Origin: Candidatus Kaiserbacteria bacterium
GTDB taxonomy: Bacteria; Patescibacteriota; Minisyncoccia; Phycocordibacterales; UBA2100
Assembly: GCA_016217925.1 (NCBI GenBank)
Contig: JACRFK010000004.1
Coordinates: forward strand, 133,869-197,868
DNA: 64,000 bases
Direction of reading: 5' to 3'
Under the pieces are notes generated by a model that ran no database searches, was not told the DNA's origin, and saw only the letters and a program-made list of their open reading frames with translations. Position 1 is the stretch's first letter, and every line of letters starts with the position of its first letter. Below are positions 7,432-57,092 of this stretch, in pieces. Both the position numbers and the translations under genes were made by a program.

Positions 7432-7512
7432 ATGGCGGCAGATTTGAAGGGGCTTAAGACGCAATTTCTCCCCGCCGGAGGCGGGTCCTCCTCCGGAGGA
7501 GAATACTTATGA
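7432..7512 (+). CDS. upstream ORF (26 aa) mimicking the Xer N-terminus; its TGA stop overlaps the xer ATG (ATGA)
   Basis: [26 protein letters not shown]; residues [10 protein letters not shown] match Xer residues 3-12 (9/10) with 8 of 10 codons synonymously different. Confidence 0.4.
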
Positions 7513-9686
7513 AAGACTTAAAGGGTTTGAAAACCGAGTTTCTGGAGTATATAGAAATTGAAAAAGGGCGGAGCGTGAAGACGGTCGAGAATTATGACCG
7601 CTATCTCATGCGGTTCCTCAATTTTGCAAAGGTGAAGTCCCCTGCCCAGATAACCGAGCAGATGGTGCGTGAATTCCGTATCACACTCAATCGTTCCGCA
7701 GGGGTTACAGGCACGATGAAGAAGAATACACAAAATTATCACCTCATCGCGCTGCGCGCGTTCCTCAAGTTCCTCCGCAAGCGTGATATCGAATCGCTCA
7801 ATCCCGAGCGTATCGAACTTGCCAAGGTCGGTGGACGCGATTTGGATCTCATTACCGCCGATGAGCTCAACAGGATCATGCGTGCGCCCACGGGTGACGA
7901 GCTAGGGGGTCTGCGCGACCGCGCGATCCTCGAACTTTTGTTTTCTACCGGTTTGCGCGTCTCGGAACTCTGCAATTTGAATCAGGATATTGACCTCTCT
8001 CGCGATGAGTTCTCGGTGCGCGGCAAAGGAGAAAAGGTGCGCGTGGTATTTCTCTCGGCGTCCGCGAAAAAAGCGGTGGCCGAATATTTGAAAAAGCGCG
8101 GTGATATGAGCAAGGCGTTGTTCGTCAGTTACGGCAAAGGCGGCACGAGCAAGGGAAAAGATTTACCGCGCATCACTCCGCGCTCCGTCGAGCGATTGGT
8201 AAAACAGTACGCGATAAAAGCGGGCATCACGCGCAAAGTGACGCCGCATGTCATTCGTCACTGTCTCCACGCGGAAACGCGAATAATGGGAAACCCTTCG
8301 CTCACAACGGCGAAGGAGTTGTTCGCATCCGAAAAGCAAAAGAAGGTCCTTGGATTTGATTGGAAAAACAATCGTCTCATGCGGGCCTCGATTAAGAGAC
8401 GTGAAACACATTCCACACAACGCCTGATTTCTTTATGGGCGGACGGCCGGGAAATTTGCTGCACCCCGTACCACAGCTTTTTCACCCCGAGCGTTAACGG
8501 TATTGTGCCGATACAAGCACAAGACCTGAAAGTTGGGGATTATGTAGCGGGAGTTCGCAGTGTTCAATGGTCCCAGGGAAGTAGACCCGAAAGCGAATCC
8601 ACGGACTTTTGGAGATTGCTTGGATATATTCTTGGTGATGGAACGCTTAGTGAGGCACGGCGAGGTATTATCATAAATGATAAAGAACGTCGCCACATTG
8701 ACCTATACAACGAAATTGTTTTTCGTGTGACGGGCAGGTGCGGAACCGTCACTAAATTGTCAGGCGGCAATGGGTACGCGCTCAATATCTACAATGTTGG
8801 TTTTCTGAAAAAGGTACGAGCTCTTGGAATTACACAGCGTTCAAAAGAACGGCGTGTCCCCGCGGGCCTGTTTCAGGAGTCCGAGACCGCGATCCGAGCC
8901 TTTCTTGCAGGCTATTACGATGCCGAAGGAAATAACGGCAGGATTAAGATGTTCTCCGCAAGTAAGGAACTTCTGAAAGACATACAAATGTTGCTGCTCC
9001 GGTTGTCTATCGAGAGCATACTGCTCCGCCGAGAGCGGCGAGTGAAACTTCCCCAAGGTCGGGTCATTGACCACGTCATATACATACTGCATGTGACGTA
9101 TCCACCAAGCGAGAATCGCTTTGTGGAACTCATACCAACATTCAAACAACGCATACGACCGAAAAAAGAGTGGCAGCGACTCGATATTGCATTACCTACG
9201 CAACCACTGATTCGAGGACTCTACCCCCTTTTGCTTGCCAAGAGGGGTTTCATCCATTGGCTCGGTAACCGTTATGGCATACGGTACCTGAAACGTTATA
9301 CAAGAATATGTACAACACCGCTGCTGCTCTCTGTGTTTCTTAAGGCCTGCAAAGAAAAAAGAATTCGAAATCCATTTATCAAGCAACTCGAGGTTCTCAA
9401 CCGACTCGATTCGATTCGATGGCTCCGAGTGAAGAAGCTGGAGATGGTCGGCGGTGTATCGAAAGTTTACGATTTCACGATAGAACCAACGCACAATTTC
9501 ATCACAGATGGTTTTATCTCGCACAACTCATTCGCGACTGACCTACTCGAAAATGGTGCCGATCTGCGTAGCGTGCAAGCGCTCCTCGGCCACGCCAACA
9601 TCGCAACGACCCAAGTCTACACGCACGTGACCGACAAACACCTCCGCGAAGTCCATCAGGCATTTCACGGCAAACGCCGCAAATAA
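7509..9686 (+). CDS. XerC/XerD-family tyrosine recombinase containing an in-frame intein
   Basis: N-terminal SAM-like domain; ...TPHVIRH then a 422-aa insertion then [34 protein letters not shown] (R-H box and catalytic Tyr region). Confidence 0.85.
8262..9527 (+). mobile_element. intein with LAGLIDADG homing-endonuclease domain inside the xer gene
   Basis: starts with Cys right after HVIRH; ends with His-Asn before Ser+1 (SFAT); block B TPYH; LAGLIDADG motifs [11 protein letters not shown] and [11 protein letters not shown]; C-terminal blocks [12 protein letters not shown]...ISHN. Confidence 0.8.
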
Positions 9687-18138: not shown

Positions 18139-19608
18139 TTATGAAACGTGATGCTTCTCCCTCAATTTCTGTATGGCCGCTTCGTCCTCCTCTTCGCGGC
18201 GGTCTTTGCCTGCTTCGCCAAGCTTGCGCAGTTCGGCATCCTCAATTTTCATAAGTTCAGAGGCTTTCTTTTCCAGGTATTCCTCGGTGTTTTTGGCGGG
18301 CTCGTCGAGCACTTCTTCGAGGAGCGCGTGCAATATCCAACCGATGCGGGGGCCGGGCTTCTCGCCGAGTTCGATGAGTTTTGTGCCGTCGATCTTGAGC
18401 ATGCCGACGGAAACTGGATCGCGCATTGCTTCGTCCACCATCGACATGTATTTACGCAAACGGAACGGGTGCGCCTTGGGACGGCCGGTACCGATGCGAT
18501 CGCAGACACGCAGATTGAGAAGGTCGTTAATATTTTCCTTGCCCACACGCGCTATCACCCGGCGCACTGCCGAGAGTGTGACGACTTCCGGGTCCGAGAA
18601 AAACATATGCGTGCGTACGAGTGTCGCCACATTATGTGTCGTCTCTTTTGGAAACCTGAGCTCATTAAGTATCTTCTTGGTCATACGTGCCGAGACGACG
18701 TCGTGACCGTGAAATGTCCAATCTTTCTTCTCGTCCGACCATACACGGGTCGCCGGCTTGCCCACGTCGTGCAAGAGTGCGGCAAGGCGCACGTCGAGCG
18801 GCCAGTCCTTGTCTGCGGCGTGTTGGAGGCTTCGCATCAGGTGTTCGAATACATCGAATGAATGCGCCTGGTTTTGCGCACAACCGATACCCTCTTCTAA
18901 TTCCGGAATAACGTATTTGAGAATGCCGAGCTTTTGAGCCACATACAGAGCTTGCAGCGGGCGGGGACTTAATACGATGCGCACGAGCTCGTCGCGCACG
19001 CGCTCACGCGAGATTTTCGCAAGCTGTGCCGCTTGTGCATTGATACCTTCGGCCGTCTGCGCATCAATAACGAAATCGAGCTCGGCGGCGATGCGCACTG
19101 CGCGCAGCATACGCAACGCGTCTTCTTCAAATCGCTCGTGCGGATTTCCGACGGTCTTGATGCGTTTCGCCGAGAGATCTTCACGGCCGCCGTGCTCGTC
19201 GACGAACTCCCCCGTTGAGGCGTCATAAGCGATAGCGTTGATTGTGAAGTCGCGCCGCTTCAAATCTTCCGACAACGTATCGCTGAAGGTGACTTCGTCC
19301 GGATGGCGGGCGTTTGAGTACTTCCCTTCCGTGCGATACGGCGTCACCTCGATGACCTTGAGCCGCGGGTCTTCGGATTTTGTGACGACGCCGACGGTGC
19401 CGTACTCATTCTCATAAAAAGTGTCTTCGAAAAGTCCCTGGATTTTCTCCGGCGTCGCATCTGTCGTGATGTCCCAATCCTTCGGCTCGCGGCCGATGAC
19501 AAGATCGCGCACGCATCCGCCGACGAGGTACGCTTGGAATCCGGCAGTCTGCAGGGCGTCGGAAACGGACTGTACTTCTTTGGGGATGGCCAGCTTTACG
19601 GACTTCAT
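18139..19608 (-). CDS. cca: CCA-adding tRNA nucleotidyltransferase with HD domain
   Basis: GGCVRDLVIGREPKDWDITT, RRDFTINAIAYD, HD-domain LLHDVGKP; start set to MKSVKL because the upstream in-frame ATG overlaps tRNA-Arg. Confidence 0.85.
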   Translation of the reverse strand: MKSVKLAIPKEVQSVSDALQTAGFQAYLVGGCVRDLVIGREPKDWDITTDATPEKIQGLFEDTFYENEYGTVGVVTKSEDPRLKVIEVTPYRTEGKYSNARHPDEVTFSDTLSEDLKRRDFTINAIAYDASTGEFVDEHGGREDLSAKRIKTVGNPHERFEEDALRMLRAVRIAAELDFVIDAQTAEGINAQAAQLAKISRERVRDELVRIVLSPRPLQALYVAQKLGILKYVIPELEEGIGCAQNQAHSFDVFEHLMRSLQHAADKDWPLDVRLAALLHDVGKPATRVWSDEKKDWTFHGHDVVSARMTKKILNELRFPKETTHNVATLVRTHMFFSDPEVVTLSAVRRVIARVGKENINDLLNLRVCDRIGTGRPKAHPFRLRKYMSMVDEAMRDPVSVGMLKIDGTKLIELGEKPGPRIGWILHALLEEVLDEPAKNTEEYLEKKASELMKIEDAELRKLGEAGKDRREEEDEAAIQKLREKHHVS

Positions 19609-19634
19609 TTTGGTATTGTAACTCACAAGTGTGT

Positions 19635-19709
19635 TGGTGCTCCCGCCAGGATTCGAACCTGGAACGTCAGTTCCGAAGACTGATGTGATATCCATTTCAC
19701 CACGGGAGC
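19635..19709 (-). tRNA. tRNA-Arg (anticodon TCG), CCA encoded
   Basis: hand-folded cloverleaf: acceptor GCTCCCG/CGGGAGC, anticodon loop CTTCGGA, T-loop TTCGAAT, 3' ACCA. Confidence 0.8.
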
Positions 19710-19825
19710 TAGCGAGGGGCAAAATGAAAGCTTGCTTTCACTTTTCCCGAGCGACGATTCCGTATGCTCCAGACCTACGGGAGCGTTCACGCATAATACG
19801 CGGGCATGCCCCTGAATACAATCTG

Positions 19826-24212: not shown

Positions 24213-24283
24213 CGGGGCGTAGTATACCGGTAGTACGTCTGCTTTGGGAGCAGATAGACCGAGTTCGATTCTCGGCGCCCCGA
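24213..24283 (+). tRNA. tRNA-Pro (anticodon TGG)
   Basis: acceptor CGGGGCG/CGCCCCG with C1-G72, anticodon arm TCTGC-TTTGGGA-GCAGA, T-loop TTCGATT. Confidence 0.8.
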
Positions 24284-24421
24284 ATGCAATGAGGAAGAAC
24301 AGGCAAACTGCTTTGCCTGTGTCCGGAATCGAAAGGCGGAGCGCTGCCGCTTTGCGGCCGCGAGCCCGGGCCGGCGGTACTTATGAACAAAGCGAATTAG
24401 TAACCGTGGCCGATTCTCGGC
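24267..24421 (+). repeat. 20-21 bp direct repeat of the tRNA-Pro 3' end flanking a ~115 bp GC-rich palindromic segment (att-like)
   Basis: GATTCTCGGCGCCCCGAATG at 24267-24286 (inside the tRNA) and again at 24402-24421. Confidence 0.6.
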
Positions 24422-24449
24422 GCCCCGAATGTTGTGCGCAGCCGCAGTC

Positions 24450-25719: not shown

Positions 25720-25790
25720 GCGGGATTAGTTTAGTGGTAAAACGTCAGTTTTCCAAACTGAAGTTGGGAGTTCGATTCCCCCATCCCGCA
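25720..25790 (+). tRNA. tRNA-Gly (anticodon TCC)
   Basis: acceptor GCGGGAT/ATCCCGC, D-arm GTTT-AGTGGTA-AAAC, anticodon arm TCAGT-TTTCCAA-ACTGA, T-loop TTCGATT (one A-C mismatch in the T-stem). Confidence 0.7.
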
Positions 25791-25961
25791 TTAAAACTGC
25801 CGACGCCACAGCGACGCTGTGGCGTCGTGCTGGTTTTTGCGGGTGGGTGATGAGAAAGACGGAGGCGGGGCCCCCGCGAGCTCGCGGGGAGCCGAGTCGG
25901 GGTCGCGGAAATTCGCGAGCGGCGGCGAACGAATTACCGTGACCGATTCCCCCATCCCGCA
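25773..25961 (+). repeat. 18-bp direct repeat of the tRNA-Gly 3' end flanking a ~150 bp GC-rich segment (att-like)
   Basis: CGATTCCCCCATCCCGCA at 25773-25790 and 25944-25961; the second copy is preceded by CGAATTAccgtgaCCGATTC, as in the tRNA-Pro island. Confidence 0.6.
25801..25838 (+). terminator. rho-independent terminator after tRNA-Gly
   Basis: CGACGCCACAGcgacgCTGTGGCGTCG followed by tgcTGGTTTTT. Confidence 0.65.
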
Positions 25962-26060
25962 CATTTCGACAGGTTCGACGAGCTCACCGCAAGCAAGTTC
26001 AGTGCAAGCGAAACAAAATCCCGCCACTACGGCGGGATTTTGTGTAGAAATGCTAAAAAG

Positions 26061-50870: not shown

Positions 50871-51281
50871 ATGGCTAAACAAGTCGTTATCTACACTGAT
50901 GGAGGTGCCCGAAATAATCCGGGGCCCGCGGGTGCCGGCGTCGTCATCATTGATGAAAAGAAGAAAGTCACACTGAAAAAATATCTCGGAAGTCAGACCA
51001 ATAATTGGGCAGAGTACGAGGCCGTAGTACTCGCGCTTTCAGAGGCGAAGAGGCTCGGGCTCGGCGGGCGCCCTCTAGAAGTGCGTATGGATAGCAAGCT
51101 CGTCGTTGAGCAAATTCTCGGCAATTGGAAAATAAAAGAACCGACGCTCAAGCCACAGGCTGCGAAAGTTCGCGCGCTGCTCGCGGCAGATTTTCCAAAA
51201 TATCATTTCGTACACATTCCGCGCGAGGAAAACGCCGAGGCGGATGCGCTCGTCAATGAGGTGCTAGATTCATCCCGTTAG
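50871..51281 (+). CDS. rnhA: ribonuclease HI
   Basis: VVIYTDGGARNNPGPAG, TNNWAEYEAV, C-terminal EENAEADALVN. Confidence 0.85.
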   Translation: MAKQVVIYTDGGARNNPGPAGAGVVIIDEKKKVTLKKYLGSQTNNWAEYEAVVLALSEAKRLGLGGRPLEVRMDSKLVVEQILGNWKIKEPTLKPQAAKVRALLAADFPKYHFVHIPREENAEADALVNEVLDSSR

Positions 51282-53553: not shown

Positions 53554-53958
53554 TCAAGCAATCGGCAGTACTTCGGCCTTGGAATTGCCGATGCCGGAGT
53601 CGTCCATCGGTGGGCTGCCGCCGACCTCGTCCGGTTTCTTCGGCGGCCAAACGTCCTCAACCGTGTAGGACTTCTTCGGTTCAGCGTTGCGCTTTTGCTC
53701 CGACGCGACCCACGTGAGCGCGGCTTGAACATCTGCCTCGTTGCCGAGTCCAATCAGATCGGCACTGACGACGATGCTCTTGGCGAAGGCCTCGTGCTCC
53801 TTCGGAACAGCCGTCCCTTTTAGCAGCTTGCAGGCGCCGCGAAACTCATCCTGCACGGTCTGCAAATTATTGCCGCCGTTGTACTGGGCGGCGATATCCT
53901 CGAACACGTCGCTGCGTTCGTGCAACGGCGGAGGCTTCGTCTGATTGGTTTCGGCCAT
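53554..53958 (-). CDS. hypothetical protein
   Basis: start set to MAETNQ; no homolog recognised. Confidence 0.3.
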   Translation of the reverse strand: MAETNQTKPPPLHERSDVFEDIAAQYNGGNNLQTVQDEFRGACKLLKGTAVPKEHEAFAKSIVVSADLIGLGNEADVQAALTWVASEQKRNAEPKKSYTVEDVWPPKKPDEVGGSPPMDDSGIGNSKAEVLPIA

Positions 53959-54055
53959 GGCCGTATCCTCTCTAGCTAGCGAGAACAACCCATGTCGACA
54001 TGGGGCTTCACAGGATGCGAAGCCCAAAGACTATATGCCCGCGGCAACCGACTGT

Positions 54056-55499: not shown

Positions 55500-56393
55500 A
55501 TGTCGACGGTCAACGATAGTGCGGGCTATACTTTGGCCATGCGAAAAAGCGTGCGGATAAAAGGGGCGGCGATAGTTGTACTTCTCCTTGCCACGCTCTG
55601 CATCTGGTACGCGGCAATACAGGAAGACCACCGCGGCTTTCTCGCTGTTTCTTTCCTTGATATCGGCCAGGGCGATTCCATTTTCATCCAAGTGCCTTCA
55701 GGCAGGCAGGTCCTTGTCGACGGCGGCGCGAACACAAGCGTGTTGCGCCAGCTTTCGCGTGTGATGCCTTGGTACGACCGTTCAATTGATGTCGTTATTT
55801 CTACTCACCCGGATGCCGACCACATCGGCGGACTCATAGATGTGCTCGCGCGGTATAAAGTGGATACCGTCGTTCACTCAAGCGTCGAAGGGGATACGAA
55901 AACATTCGCCGCCTTCAACCGCGCGATGGTGGACGAGCACGCACAAGAGGTTGTCGCTATCCGCGGACAAATTGTTGACCTCGGTAGAGGGGCGTACCTC
56001 CAAATACTTTCTCCCGACCGGCCCGTGCCACATGAAGATACCAACGATGGTTGCGTCGTGGCGCGGCTCGTCTACGGAACGACCGCATTCATGCTTTCGT
56101 GCGACGCGCCGCAATCTATTGAAAATTATCTCGTAGCCCTCGGCACGTCTACCCTCAAATCAAATGTCTTGAAAGCCGGACACCACGGCTCTAAGACTTC
56201 TTCGTCACCGCTTTTCCTCGGATATGTCGCGCCTGAGTACGGCGTATTCTCCCGCGGCTGCGACAACAGCTACGGGCACCCCGCGCCGGAAATCGTCGCG
56301 CGCTTCGCGCAATTCGGCATCCCGACATTCGATACCTGCAAAGACGGCACGGTTACATTCGTGTCCGATGGAAAGACCGTGAGGAGGAATTAG
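55500..56393 (+). CDS. standalone metallo-beta-lactamase-fold hydrolase of the ComEC C-terminal-domain type
   Basis: LDIGQGDSIFIQ...VLVDGG...HPDADHIGG...GHHGS motifs; N-terminal TM. Confidence 0.7.
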   Translation: MSTVNDSAGYTLAMRKSVRIKGAAIVVLLLATLCIWYAAIQEDHRGFLAVSFLDIGQGDSIFIQVPSGRQVLVDGGANTSVLRQLSRVMPWYDRSIDVVISTHPDADHIGGLIDVLARYKVDTVVHSSVEGDTKTFAAFNRAMVDEHAQEVVAIRGQIVDLGRGAYLQILSPDRPVPHEDTNDGCVVARLVYGTTAFMLSCDAPQSIENYLVALGTSTLKSNVLKAGHHGSKTSSSPLFLGYVAPEYGVFSRGCDNSYGHPAPEIVARFAQFGIPTFDTCKDGTVTFVSDGKTVRRN

Positions 56394-56672: not shown

Positions 56673-56712
56673 TAATTTACAATTTTGCAATTTACAATTT
56701 TCAATCAATTTC
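56673..56712 (+). repeat. left AT-rich inverted repeat flanking the four-helix-bundle gene
   Basis: AATTTACAATTTTGCAATTTACAATTTTCAATCAATTTCC; partner at 57102-57130. Confidence 0.5.
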
Positions 56713-56714
56713 CA

Positions 56715-57092
56715 ATGGAACAAGCTTCAAACAAGAAGCAATACGACCTCGAGGAGCGGACGGCCGTTTTTGGTGAATCTGTCATCGGTCTGTGCAAACA
56801 GGTGCGACATGATGCGGTTACGAAGCCGATCGTTAATCAGTTGATCAGGTCCGGTACCAGTATCGGGGCAAACTACATGGAAGCCAACGGTGCCAGCTCA
56901 AAGCGGGACTTCATCAACAAAATCTTTATCTGCAAAAAAGAAGCTCAAGAAACGAAACACTGGCTCCGCATGCTTGCGAGTTGTTTGCCGGAAAAGGGCG
57001 TGGCGATACGTACTCTGTGGAAAGAGTGTCAGGAGCTCACCCTCATTTTTCAGAAAATTGCCGCTTCCTCGCGTTTGAAAATTGAGCCTTGA
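56715..57092 (+). CDS. four-helix-bundle protein (23S rRNA intervening-sequence protein family)
   Basis: GTSIGANYMEANGASSKRDFINKIFICKKEAQETKHWLRML is the family signature. Confidence 0.8.
   Translation: MEQASNKKQYDLEERTAVFGESVIGLCKQVRHDAVTKPIVNQLIRSGTSIGANYMEANGASSKRDFINKIFICKKEAQETKHWLRMLASCLPEKGVAIRTLWKECQELTLIFQKIAASSRLKIEP

Follow-up and report, generated by a model that had tools for sequence, protein, structure and literature searches.

Integrases of the T-loop class reportedly leave behind a direct repeat in which the tRNA 3' end is duplicated from within the T-loop, and repeats of tRNA 3' ends are used routinely in annotation to delimit genomic islands. Here, a repeat of this kind was analyzed in a 64,000-nucleotide (nt) stretch of DNA, hereafter the window, from Candidatus Kaiserbacteria (Paceibacteria, candidate phyla radiation [CPR]; contig JACRFK010000004.1, positions 133,869 to 197,868 of the forward strand), where the 3' end of a tRNA-Pro gene recurs a short distance downstream. 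Very probably, the repeat is one strand of the closing helix of a structured element that belongs to a large family linked to tRNA and transfer-messenger RNA (tmRNA) genes. Members of the family are 125 to 190 nt long, contain no open reading frame (ORF), lie on the same strand as the tRNA or tmRNA, and are found in Paceibacteria/Kaiserbacteria and related uncultured bacteria. We know of no described RNA family or mobile element with a closing helix composed of a copy and a complement of the neighboring tRNA 3' end. No description of the family was found in the full-text literature, with subscription journals outside the coverage; the family is apparently undescribed.

The sequence-only reading of this stretch had pointed to a downstream repeat of the tRNA-Pro 3' end, and an exact copy is indeed present. 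The maximal exact direct repeat, CGATTCTCGGCGCCCCGAATG, is 21 nt long, with copies at 24266-24286 and 24411-24431, and extends from C56 of the T-loop to 3 nt past the discriminator of tRNA-Pro; in relaxed form, it covers 29 nt at 90% identity. The copy is significant relative to shuffled sequence, two matches to CGATTCTCGGCGCCCCGAATG being found in 0 of 100 dinucleotide shuffles, and there is no third match in the window with up to 3 mismatches allowed. The distances reported earlier (a spacing of 135 bp and a segment of 115 bp) have to be revised to 145 nt from start to start and 124 nt between the copies, and the end of the feature moves from 24421, which falls inside the second copy, to 24431. 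The element is flanked by the genes for GTP cyclohydrolase II and a trypsin-like protease and is organized as follows.

24213-24283, + strand: tRNA-Pro(TGG), intact, without encoded CCA (ARAGORN; Rfam tRNA, 61.2 bits).
24266-24286, + strand: first copy of the direct repeat, comprising T-loop C56, the T-stem 3' strand, the acceptor 3' strand, the discriminator, and ATG (exact 21-mer, 2 copies versus 0 expected).
24284-24431, + strand: entire tRNA-Pro tail element with a type B core (match to covariance model R1 at 24283-24429, 63.1 bits, E = 5.7e-13).
24299-24320, + strand: hairpin Pa, ACAGGCAAA-CTGC-TTTGCCTGT (read from the sequence).
24323-24331, + strand: "anti-T" strand, CCGGAATCG, the 5' strand of closing helix P1b, which complements the T-loop/T-stem part of the tail copy, with 1 nt deleted relative to the perfect complement.
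24335-24366, + strand: P2, with a GGC/GCC base, bulged G24338, tandem G·A/A·G (24339-40 with 24362-63), GCG/CGC, and the terminal hairpin CCGC-TTT-GCGG (R1 alignment).
24369-24411, + strand: P3, GGCCGGCGGTACTTA…TTAGTAACCGTGGCC, with the G·U pair 24373·24407 and the terminal loop TGAACAAAGCGAA (type B alignment).
24411-24431, + strand: second copy of the direct repeat, the "tail," comprising the P1b 3' strand and the copy of the acceptor 3' strand, the discriminator, and ATG (exact repeat).

Across the family, the elements are composed, from 5' to 3', of a spacer, sometimes a strand denoted P1a, the hairpin Pa, CGU, the anti-T strand (P1b), GAA-M, P2, P3, and the tail copy. The spacer is short and purine-rich, often with GAACGAAGUGA, or consists of a terminator-like palindrome. 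P1a, present in some copies (about one-third), is the complement of the acceptor 3' strand plus the discriminator and the base after it; the anti-T strand complements the T-stem 3' strand and T-loop positions 56 to 60 of the neighboring tRNA. The loop of Pa is often CUGC. P2, which follows the conserved junction GAA-M, has the consensus GSC, bulged G, tandem G·A/A·G, GC…GC-GA-GSC; P3 is variable and comes in several types; and the tail reproduces the 3' end of the local tRNA from C56 or G57 to approximately the discriminator. The predicted fold is a three-way junction of Pa, P2, and P3 with tandem G·A, closed by P1, in which the anti-T strand pairs with the tail copy. Given this anatomy, the att-like repeat is the 3' strand of the closing helix. 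The GC-rich palindromic stretches that had been noticed before are likewise real and represent helix strands: GCGGAGCGCTGCCGC belongs to P2, and GCCCGGGC is located where P2 meets P3. Within the element, no partner is detectable for the acceptor portion of the tRNA-Pro tail, the duplex energy being at the control level.

Covariation was assessed in an alignment, A2, of 21 elements from other genomes that represent nine tRNA species and include no window sequence. The A2 structure consists of 54 pairs, with 80.5% of the cells paired and 39 pairs changed on both sides, and its covariation score is 0.492 compared to 0.168 for shuffled alignments (reached in 0 of 500); slid partners score 0.07 to 0.16. 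In the family, compensatory changes were detected in 9 of 9 Pa pairs, with 95.8% of the cells paired, and RNAalifold, run blind, recovered the same Pa, P1b, P2, and P3, with compensatory changes in 33 of 42 pairs. The tandem G·A of P3 is part of a helix because it is replaced by Watson-Crick pairs in a few members. Type B P3, GGYCGNGG…CCGUGRCC, is present in both copies in the window. In the type B alignment (n = 21), the G·U pair of P3 is found in all 21 sequences, next to a pair that is UA in 17 and CG in 3; the middle pair of P2a is CG in 11, GC in 9, and AU in 1; and the P1b position opposite T-loop 59/60 is AU in 12, CG in 3, UA in 3, and GC in 1, following the tRNA. Several structural resemblances were examined and rejected: a kissing interaction that would join the CUGC loop of Pa to the GCAG loop of P2 is inconsistent across copies; a canonical K-turn in P2/P3 is at odds with a bulge of 1 nt rather than 3 and with the Watson-Crick pairs in place of the P3 tandem GA in some copies; and a likeness to 5S rRNA (three-way junction, CGAGAG…GGGA) is not accompanied by any Rfam 5S score on the element.

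The covariance model R1, built from A2, has exactly two matches in the window, 24283-24429 and 25813-25962, with nothing else better than an E value of 0.5. In approximately 1.6 Mb of related and metagenomic DNA, 146 matches were detected. In 861 kb of Kaiserbacteria loci plus the window, there are 41, of which 40 lie directly 3' of a same-strand tRNA and 1 is at a contig end, and this corresponds to occupancy of ∼16% of the 254 tRNAs in these loci; a further 85 matches come from the first 100 viral/metagenomic loci and 20 from the remaining 25, among the matches listed. When 126 matches were mapped, 97 were located ≤130 nt past a same-strand tRNA (at least 31 anticodons), 6 in tandem after another element, 3 at contig ends, and 20 in other positions. 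Two of these 20 adjoin tmRNA 3' ends (L102, 8667-9242, and L163, 944-1512; Rfam tmRNA, 95.7 and 70.9 bits), and the anti-tails of both elements match the tmRNA 3' end; another follows a tRNA-like 3' end missed by ARAGORN, and yet another follows an element of a different type. Location behind both tRNA and tmRNA genes implies that the common denominator is a gene whose RNA ends in a T-arm and an acceptor strand.

Searches for repeats and patterns were also performed. In 80 related loci and the window, 36 of the 254 tRNAs have a copy of their own last 16 nt 35 to 230 nt downstream, the tRNAs concerned being Gly-TCC, Gly-GCC, Pro-TGG, Pro-CGG, and Arg-TCG; 7 of the 36 are plain partial tRNA-Pro duplications, and the remainder share a conserved interior. 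The interior motif ATCGAA[AC]G[GC]CGGAGC is found on the same strand, 36 to 91 nt past a tRNA, in nearly every occurrence. A scan of metagenome contigs with the pattern TCGAAMGSCGGAGC-N(8-38)-GCGAGSC yielded at least 120 loci; among the matches listed, to which all metagenomic counts refer, 68 lie <200 nt past a same-strand tRNA (∼33 anticodons, 16 amino acids), and 49 of the 68 end in a copy of the local tRNA's tail. Occurrences of the core pattern in 5 viral contigs were rejected as chance matches because all of these contigs lack tRNAs and none of the occurrences was recovered by R1. The size from core to tail is constant, ∼105 nt, and a genome region can harbor multiple copies, with two in the window and three in locus L055.

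No match to known families was obtained. Rfam 15 returned only tRNA and tmRNA, with nothing on the elements (positions 23 to 27 kb of the window and the two element regions at E ≤ 10; 12 loci at the gathering threshold); the tRNA, tmRNA, and mascRNA models have no match on the elements; and no similar DNA was found in phage and plasmid collections. The protease encoded between the two tRNAs of the window has relatives only in Kaiserbacteria and Parcubacteria metagenome-assembled genomes, the next relative after the source contig being at 84%. The sequence-only reading had offered a choice between a remnant after deletion and a non-autonomous element. The second alternative is partly borne out, given an ORF-less, multicopy element behind many tRNA genes with a paralogue 1.5 kb away; the first is not supported. 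Nor is the segment unique or absent from relatives, since a further copy lies in the window and related ones in many genomes, all belonging to one multicopy family.

The second copy in the window, unnoticed in the earlier reading, is located at tRNA-Gly(TCC), 1.5 kb from tRNA-Pro. There, an 18-nt exact copy of the tRNA 3' end is found 171 nt downstream (25773-25790 and 25944-25961), and homologous sequence, GAATTA(GTA)ACCGTGRCCGATTC, precedes the downstream copies at both tRNAs.

25720-25790, + strand: tRNA-Gly(TCC), intact (ARAGORN; Rfam).
25801-25838, + strand: strong terminator-like hairpin (12 bp) and T-run (inverted repeat), separating tRNA-Gly from the element.
25839-25961, + strand: second, more diverged tail element, type B (R1 match at 25813-25962, 28.5 bits, E = 4.9e-5).
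25839-25847, + strand: anti-tail of the Gly element, GCGGGTGGG.
25858-25898, + strand: P2 of the Gly element.
25901-25944, + strand: P3 of the Gly element.
25944-25961, + strand: tail of the Gly element.

The Gly copy is more decayed than the Pro copy, and the loop part of its anti-T strand reads UGAUGAG. In its minimum free energy fold, 25839-47 is paired with 25951-60 (z = -6.95), and the 5' GCGGGUGGG still pairs with the tail. A hammerhead or C/D-box reading of this copy (UGAUGAG…GAAA) was rejected because the motif is a decayed GGAGAAUCGAAAG.

Both strands of P1 are matched to the local tRNA. Among 112 elements, the loop part of the anti-T strand perfectly matches the local T-loop variant (AATCG, ATTCG, ACTCG, or AGTCG) in 90, and the stem part is free of mismatches in 30 and carries a single one in 41; the tails are perfect over 14 nt in 46 of 83. 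Judging from these counts and from examples such as L072, the tail follows the tRNA more closely than its complement. Of the 46 perfect tails, 33 have a repeat beginning at C56 and 13 one beginning at G57, and in 33 of the 46 the endpoint of the repeat deviates from the tRNA end by only -1 to +2 nt. The modal length of the repeat is 18 to 21 nt (range, 16 to 54), so the 21 nt in the window are typical. For the acceptor half of the tail, significant pairing was detected in ∼31% of the copies. The presence of CCA after the distal versus the proximal tail (12 versus 8 of 46) is uninformative. The matching of the anti-tail may result from selection, from templated (quasi-palindrome) correction, or from heteroduplex repair in a guide-like pairing step.

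Some elements depart from the common layout. In four of them (L122, L123, L191, and L196), a small extra hairpin or insert is located within the tail copy after CGAT/GAT, between T-loop positions 59 and 60. In five (L119, L122, L130, L156, and L196), the spacer region, which runs from the tRNA tail through an A-tract, a hairpin, and a T-tract to the anti-acceptor strand, is one long perfect palindrome, so that the anti-tail could pair with the tRNA itself or with the tail of the element. Priming by mature tRNA, as at a retroviral primer-binding site, was considered and rejected, given that the anti-tail, where it extends further, complements the genomic flank instead of CCA (L119 and L122).

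The elements vary in presence, copy number, and core. A comparison of occupied and empty sites at tRNA-Pro, proposed at the outset, proved feasible: locus L048 is occupied, its relative L057 (86% DNA identity) is empty, and the flank past the distal tail of L048 aligns with the flank directly past the bare tRNA-Pro of L057. The same pattern is seen at tRNA-Arg, with L001 occupied and the window empty. Occupancy thus varies among close relatives, the window containing the Pro and Gly-TCC copies and L001 only the Arg copy. Over the tRNA-Ser region that was compared, L091 differs from L171 only in having an additional, identical 155-nt unit in its tandem array, a copy number difference that points to recombination between tail repeats. 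Tandem arrays of 2 or 3 units, each ending in a tail copy, were observed in L091 (4557-5021, - strand), L103 (5897-6461, - strand), and L171 (5407-5716, - strand); the proximal array unit is of a fourth, smaller core type, with a tail copy that starts at G52/G53 and is preceded by a GAACC-UGUAA-GGUUC hairpin. Truncated, internally deleted, and decayed copies occur as well.

Core type is not tied to the tRNA. A single genome can contain several core types, as can a given tRNA site when related genomes are compared, and the nearest core shares the anticodon in 11 of 76 cases. For example, cores at Gly-GCC and Tyr-GTA are 92% identical, those at Arg and Asp 89%, and those at Ala-GGC and Ala-TGC 97%. 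In such near-identical pairs, Pa and the core are common, and the anti-acceptor strand, the anti-T strand, and the tail are local, resulting in an interleaved mosaic. These comparisons indicate that cores have moved between tRNA species and that units come, go, and amplify at tail repeats.

The folded strand is the tRNA-sense strand. In model-fitted alignments, G·U/U·G cells number 143 versus 80 for A·C/C·A, and the tandem-GA positions contain 541 G·A/A·G cells, where the opposite strand would give C·U/U·C; together with the invariant G·U of type B, these counts show that it is the sense strand that folds. The folded species is somewhat more likely to be RNA than single-stranded DNA. In 34 of 112 copies, including Gly in the window, the tRNA and the element are separated by a terminator-like hairpin and a T-run; ∼70%, including Pro, have none.

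A linked enzyme was sought among the genes of the window and those neighboring the elements at metagenomic loci. Pfam was searched with 61 of the 65 window ORFs of ≥110 amino acids; the ORFs left out were three that overlap scanned genes or tRNAs and 53554-54027, which returned no family. Most of the matching ORFs are ordinary CPR housekeeping genes. No transposase, TnpB, reverse transcriptase, Y1_Tnp, or OrfB was found among the 61, and there is no phage-type integrase next to the tRNAs of the window. Clustering of 266 neighboring ORFs from 85 metagenomic loci revealed no recurrent family, the largest cluster spanning 6 loci and having no Pfam match; other scanned cluster representatives were PilM, a VTT-domain protein, Sua5, LepA, an ABC ATPase, FtsH, a peptidoglycan-binding-domain protein, and RluA.

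We tend to regard the family as a non-autonomous, RNA-structured, selfish-like element of tRNA 3' trailers. Under this explanation, the sense strand would be transcribed within the tRNA 3' trailer, as suggested by the ∼70% of copies with no terminator in between, and the transcript would fold into the three-way junction closed by P1. By sequestering the strand antisense to the tRNA, P1 would leave the upstream tRNA able to fold, and by offering a helical end resembling a T-stem and acceptor, it could allow tRNA end-processing enzymes to excise the element, rendering the insertion harmless. As a non-autonomous repeat, the element would be lost, gained, and amplified in units via tail-repeat recombination; the Pa, P2, and P3 cores would be exchanged between tRNA species, with both P1 strands matched to the local tRNA; and the catalyst of new insertions, if any, would act in trans.

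Several observations weigh against this explanation. No insertion enzyme was found in the scan of window ORFs or in the metagenomic neighborhoods, and the presence/absence patterns can be accounted for by loss alone. The terminators in 34 of 112 copies argue against obligatory cotranscription, and the sequence alone does not separate RNA from folded single-stranded DNA, which tolerates tandem G·A and G·T. Repeat lengths of 16 to 54 nt and the different left boundary in the fourth core type make a simple, fixed target site duplication unlikely, and a role in the closing helix does not explain the perfect acceptor copy, which has a partner in only about one-third of the copies. Furthermore, the Gly(TCC) elements of L048 and L057, loci that we read as orthologous, are ∼91% identical with paired compensatory changes in P2, and P3 of the window Pro element is almost identical to that of L048, even though the protease of the latter is only ∼54% identical; such conservation resembles purifying selection and favors a host function.

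The strongest alternative is a family of resident, functional noncoding RNA genes, in which a host RNA, for example, one involved in protein binding or tRNA metabolism, is produced from the 3' trailer and inherited vertically. Loss would then occur by tail-repeat recombination, cores would be homogenized or shuffled by gene conversion, and the P1 match would be maintained by selection or templated correction. The strong covariation and conserved unpaired nucleotides (GAA-M, the bulged G, the tandem GA, and the Pa CUGC loop) fit this alternative, as do the sense orientation of the folded strand, the majority of copies lacking an intervening terminator, the failure to find a mobility gene in the window and the metagenomic neighborhoods, and the compatibility of every presence/absence case with precise deletion. 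However, just ∼16% of the tRNAs in related loci are occupied, and close relatives differ; several core types are found within one genome and at the same tRNA in relatives; tandem arrays and truncated and decayed copies exist; and core similarity is independent of tRNA identity. Low occupancy, mixed cores, arrays, and decay are the habits of a repeat, not of an RNA gene with a single function. A resident host RNA gene appears rather unlikely, if well worth consideration, and the balance tilts slightly toward a primarily mobile or selfish element.

A more specific and doubtful possibility is a mobile element without ORFs that is guided by nucleic acid, whereby the anti-tail would serve as a reprogrammable guide that base pairs with a tRNA or tmRNA gene from its T-loop to its 3' end and directs insertion precisely behind the gene through an enzyme acting in trans. 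In a variant of this scheme, the 18- to 21-nt 3' tail may be the guide of a scaffold resembling an omega-RNA or CRISPR RNA (crRNA), with the universal "GTT" at T54-T55 as the adjacent motif. The interleaving of locus-specific segments with a shared Pa and core and the fixed junction at C56/G57 would fit such guidance. If guidance operates, every tRNA gene would be a safe harbor with a matching element lineage.

The reading from which the analysis started, a classical att scar, would involve a tyrosine-integrase element that was inserted in the T-loop site of tRNA-Pro and later lost all but ∼125 bp. The geometry of the repeat, which starts from C56, is that left by T-loop-class integrases, and plain partial duplications of tRNA-Pro do exist in seven relatives. 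In these (L006, L009, L050, L067, L073, L076, and L079), a partial second tRNA-Pro, from the anticodon stem/loop to the 3' end, lies 35 to 96 nt downstream; they are classical att-type remnants, distinct from the structured element. The element itself contradicts this origin. Its interior forms a conserved fold, supported by covariation and constant in length (∼105 nt between core and tail), that is present at more than 100 loci, behind tRNAs with 31 anticodons and tmRNA, and that contains a strand complementary to the T-loop/T-stem, which is not a product of att recombination. The 124 nt between the copies match the RNA model end to end, and the scan of the window found no integrase gene or remnant beside the repeats. 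Moreover, each element has the tails of the local tRNA even when its core is closest to that of another tRNA, whereas reciprocal att recombination would produce a chimeric tRNA. A search for an integrase elsewhere had been proposed; the sole recombinase found in the window is XerC/D-like, 15 kb away, with no link to the elements shown. We consider an att scar very improbable.

The recombinase (7509-9686, + strand, 725 amino acids) consists of a SAM-like N-domain and a Phage_integrase domain and contains an intein with a LAGLIDADG homing-endonuclease domain.

A decayed tandem tRNA pseudogene, that is, a second tRNA-Pro without the D and anticodon arms, is equally improbable. Copies with P1a do recall the order of a tRNA (acceptor-5'-like strand, hairpin, T-stem-5'-like strand, T-stem 3' strand, and acceptor 3' strand), but the T-stem-5'-like strand is followed by the complement of the T-loop (AATCGAA) and not by a T-loop. 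In L119, pairing of the 5' strand includes the discriminator and the base that follows, and the G3·U70 wobble of tRNA-Ala is replaced by A-U; P1a thus complements the 3' strand instead of copying the 5' strand. The ∼100-nt core, which is not tRNA-like, is conserved across tRNA species, and neither ARAGORN nor the Rfam tRNA model scores the element. Finally, a chance local duplication of 21 nt, for which nothing but the short length speaks, can be dismissed, given that no shuffle contained two matches and that the same arrangement recurs at tRNA-Gly and at dozens of tRNAs elsewhere.

Several other genes encountered in the course of the analysis deserve mention. The window encodes a 23S_rRNA_IVP (Avd-like four-helix-bundle) protein (56685-57092, + strand) without an adjacent reverse transcriptase; its neighbors are genes for a metallo-beta-lactamase-fold protein (55500-56393), possibly RNase Z-like, and an M50 peptidase. 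RNase HI (50871-51281) gives a Pfam match to "RVT_3." tRNA-Arg(TCG) (19635-19709, - strand) encodes CCA, and tRNA-Pro and tRNA-Gly(TCC) do not. The longest ORF of the CCA-adding enzyme (PolyA_pol and HD domains; 18139-19722, - strand) overruns the tRNA-Arg gene, so that its true start is probably further downstream. Among the metagenomic neighbors, L199 (1281-3623, - strand) encodes a homologue of LepA (EF4) with a PD-(D/E)XK nuclease domain inserted in the GTPase domain.

If our reading is correct, a considerable share of the tRNA and tmRNA genes of CPR/Patescibacteria, organisms with very small and little-understood genomes, are followed by a structured element that is invisible to current annotation. 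Where islands are delimited by repeats of tRNA 3' ends, these elements would yield false att calls. In these organisms, many tRNAs would have long, folded 3' trailers with portions antisense to the tRNA itself, and the family could represent a noncoding element with tRNA-specific, retargetable recognition.

Among known systems, the internal complement of the sequence upstream of the insertion point recalls the pairing of exon- and intron-binding sites (EBS-IBS) in group II introns, the guides of IS200/IS605, and the homing crRNAs of type V-K transposons, for which, too, tRNA genes are safe harbors and the specificity segment changes as the scaffold stays. The likeness does not go beyond analogy: neither a ribozyme core nor genes for reverse transcriptase, TnpA/TnpB, or Cas/Tns were found, and the complementarity of 9 to 20 nt is also met in cis by the element's own tail. 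For IS200/IS605 in particular, where the comparison covered window ORFs only, the geometry of flank, guide, and hairpin is similar, but the complementarity is 9 to 20 nt rather than 4 to 5, and a duplication is present. The attC sites of integrons and attP(+) of CTX phage likewise preserve structure over sequence, are strand specific, and form imperfect hairpins of ∼60 to 140 nt with a stem that recreates a duplex site. In the present elements, however, just the right half of the T-arm site is restored by the stem, nothing corresponds to P2 and P3, there is no IntI or cassette context in the window, and there is no evidence for a single-stranded DNA stage. In a direct comparison with attC, the helices and the GAA-M, GGAG, and CGAG motifs differ, and Rfam 15, in which the presence of an attC model was not checked, gives no score on the elements.

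RNAs with tRNA-like ends that serve in processing, such as the tRNA-like domain of tmRNA, mascRNA/MALAT1, viral tRNA-like structures, and tRNA-linked small RNAs from 3' external transcribed spacers, share with the family cotranscription with, or mimicry of, tRNA and a helix equivalent to the acceptor and T-stem; in the elements, in contrast, a continued helix and a junction take the place of the T-loop, and the acceptor-like helix, which about half of the copies lack, also pairs the discriminator where present. Miniature inverted-repeat transposable elements (MITEs) and structured repeats, including Correia/NEMIS, REP/REPIN, RUP, and ERIC, resemble the family in being short, ORF-less, and multicopy and in having inverted-repeat ends able to form a long hairpin, several subfamilies within a genome, copies in decay, presumed mobilization in trans, and presence/absence polymorphism. 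Unlike MITEs, the elements have no constant terminal inverted repeats and no known parent insertion sequence; instead, the anti-tail/tail pair is retailored for each tRNA, site and orientation specificity for tRNA/tmRNA 3' ends is absolute, and the fold is a multihelix junction with conserved nonhelical nucleotides. The attachment sites of islands and prophages, above all those of the T-loop class, share the repeat from the T-loop to near the tRNA 3' end, the intact tRNA in the proximal and the partial copy in the distal position, the use of tmRNA genes, and tandem arrays. In place of an integrase and cargo, the elements described here contain a conserved three-helix interior and an inverted tail copy, their repeats range from 16 to 54 nt, and one core is found behind every tRNA species, with both tails local.

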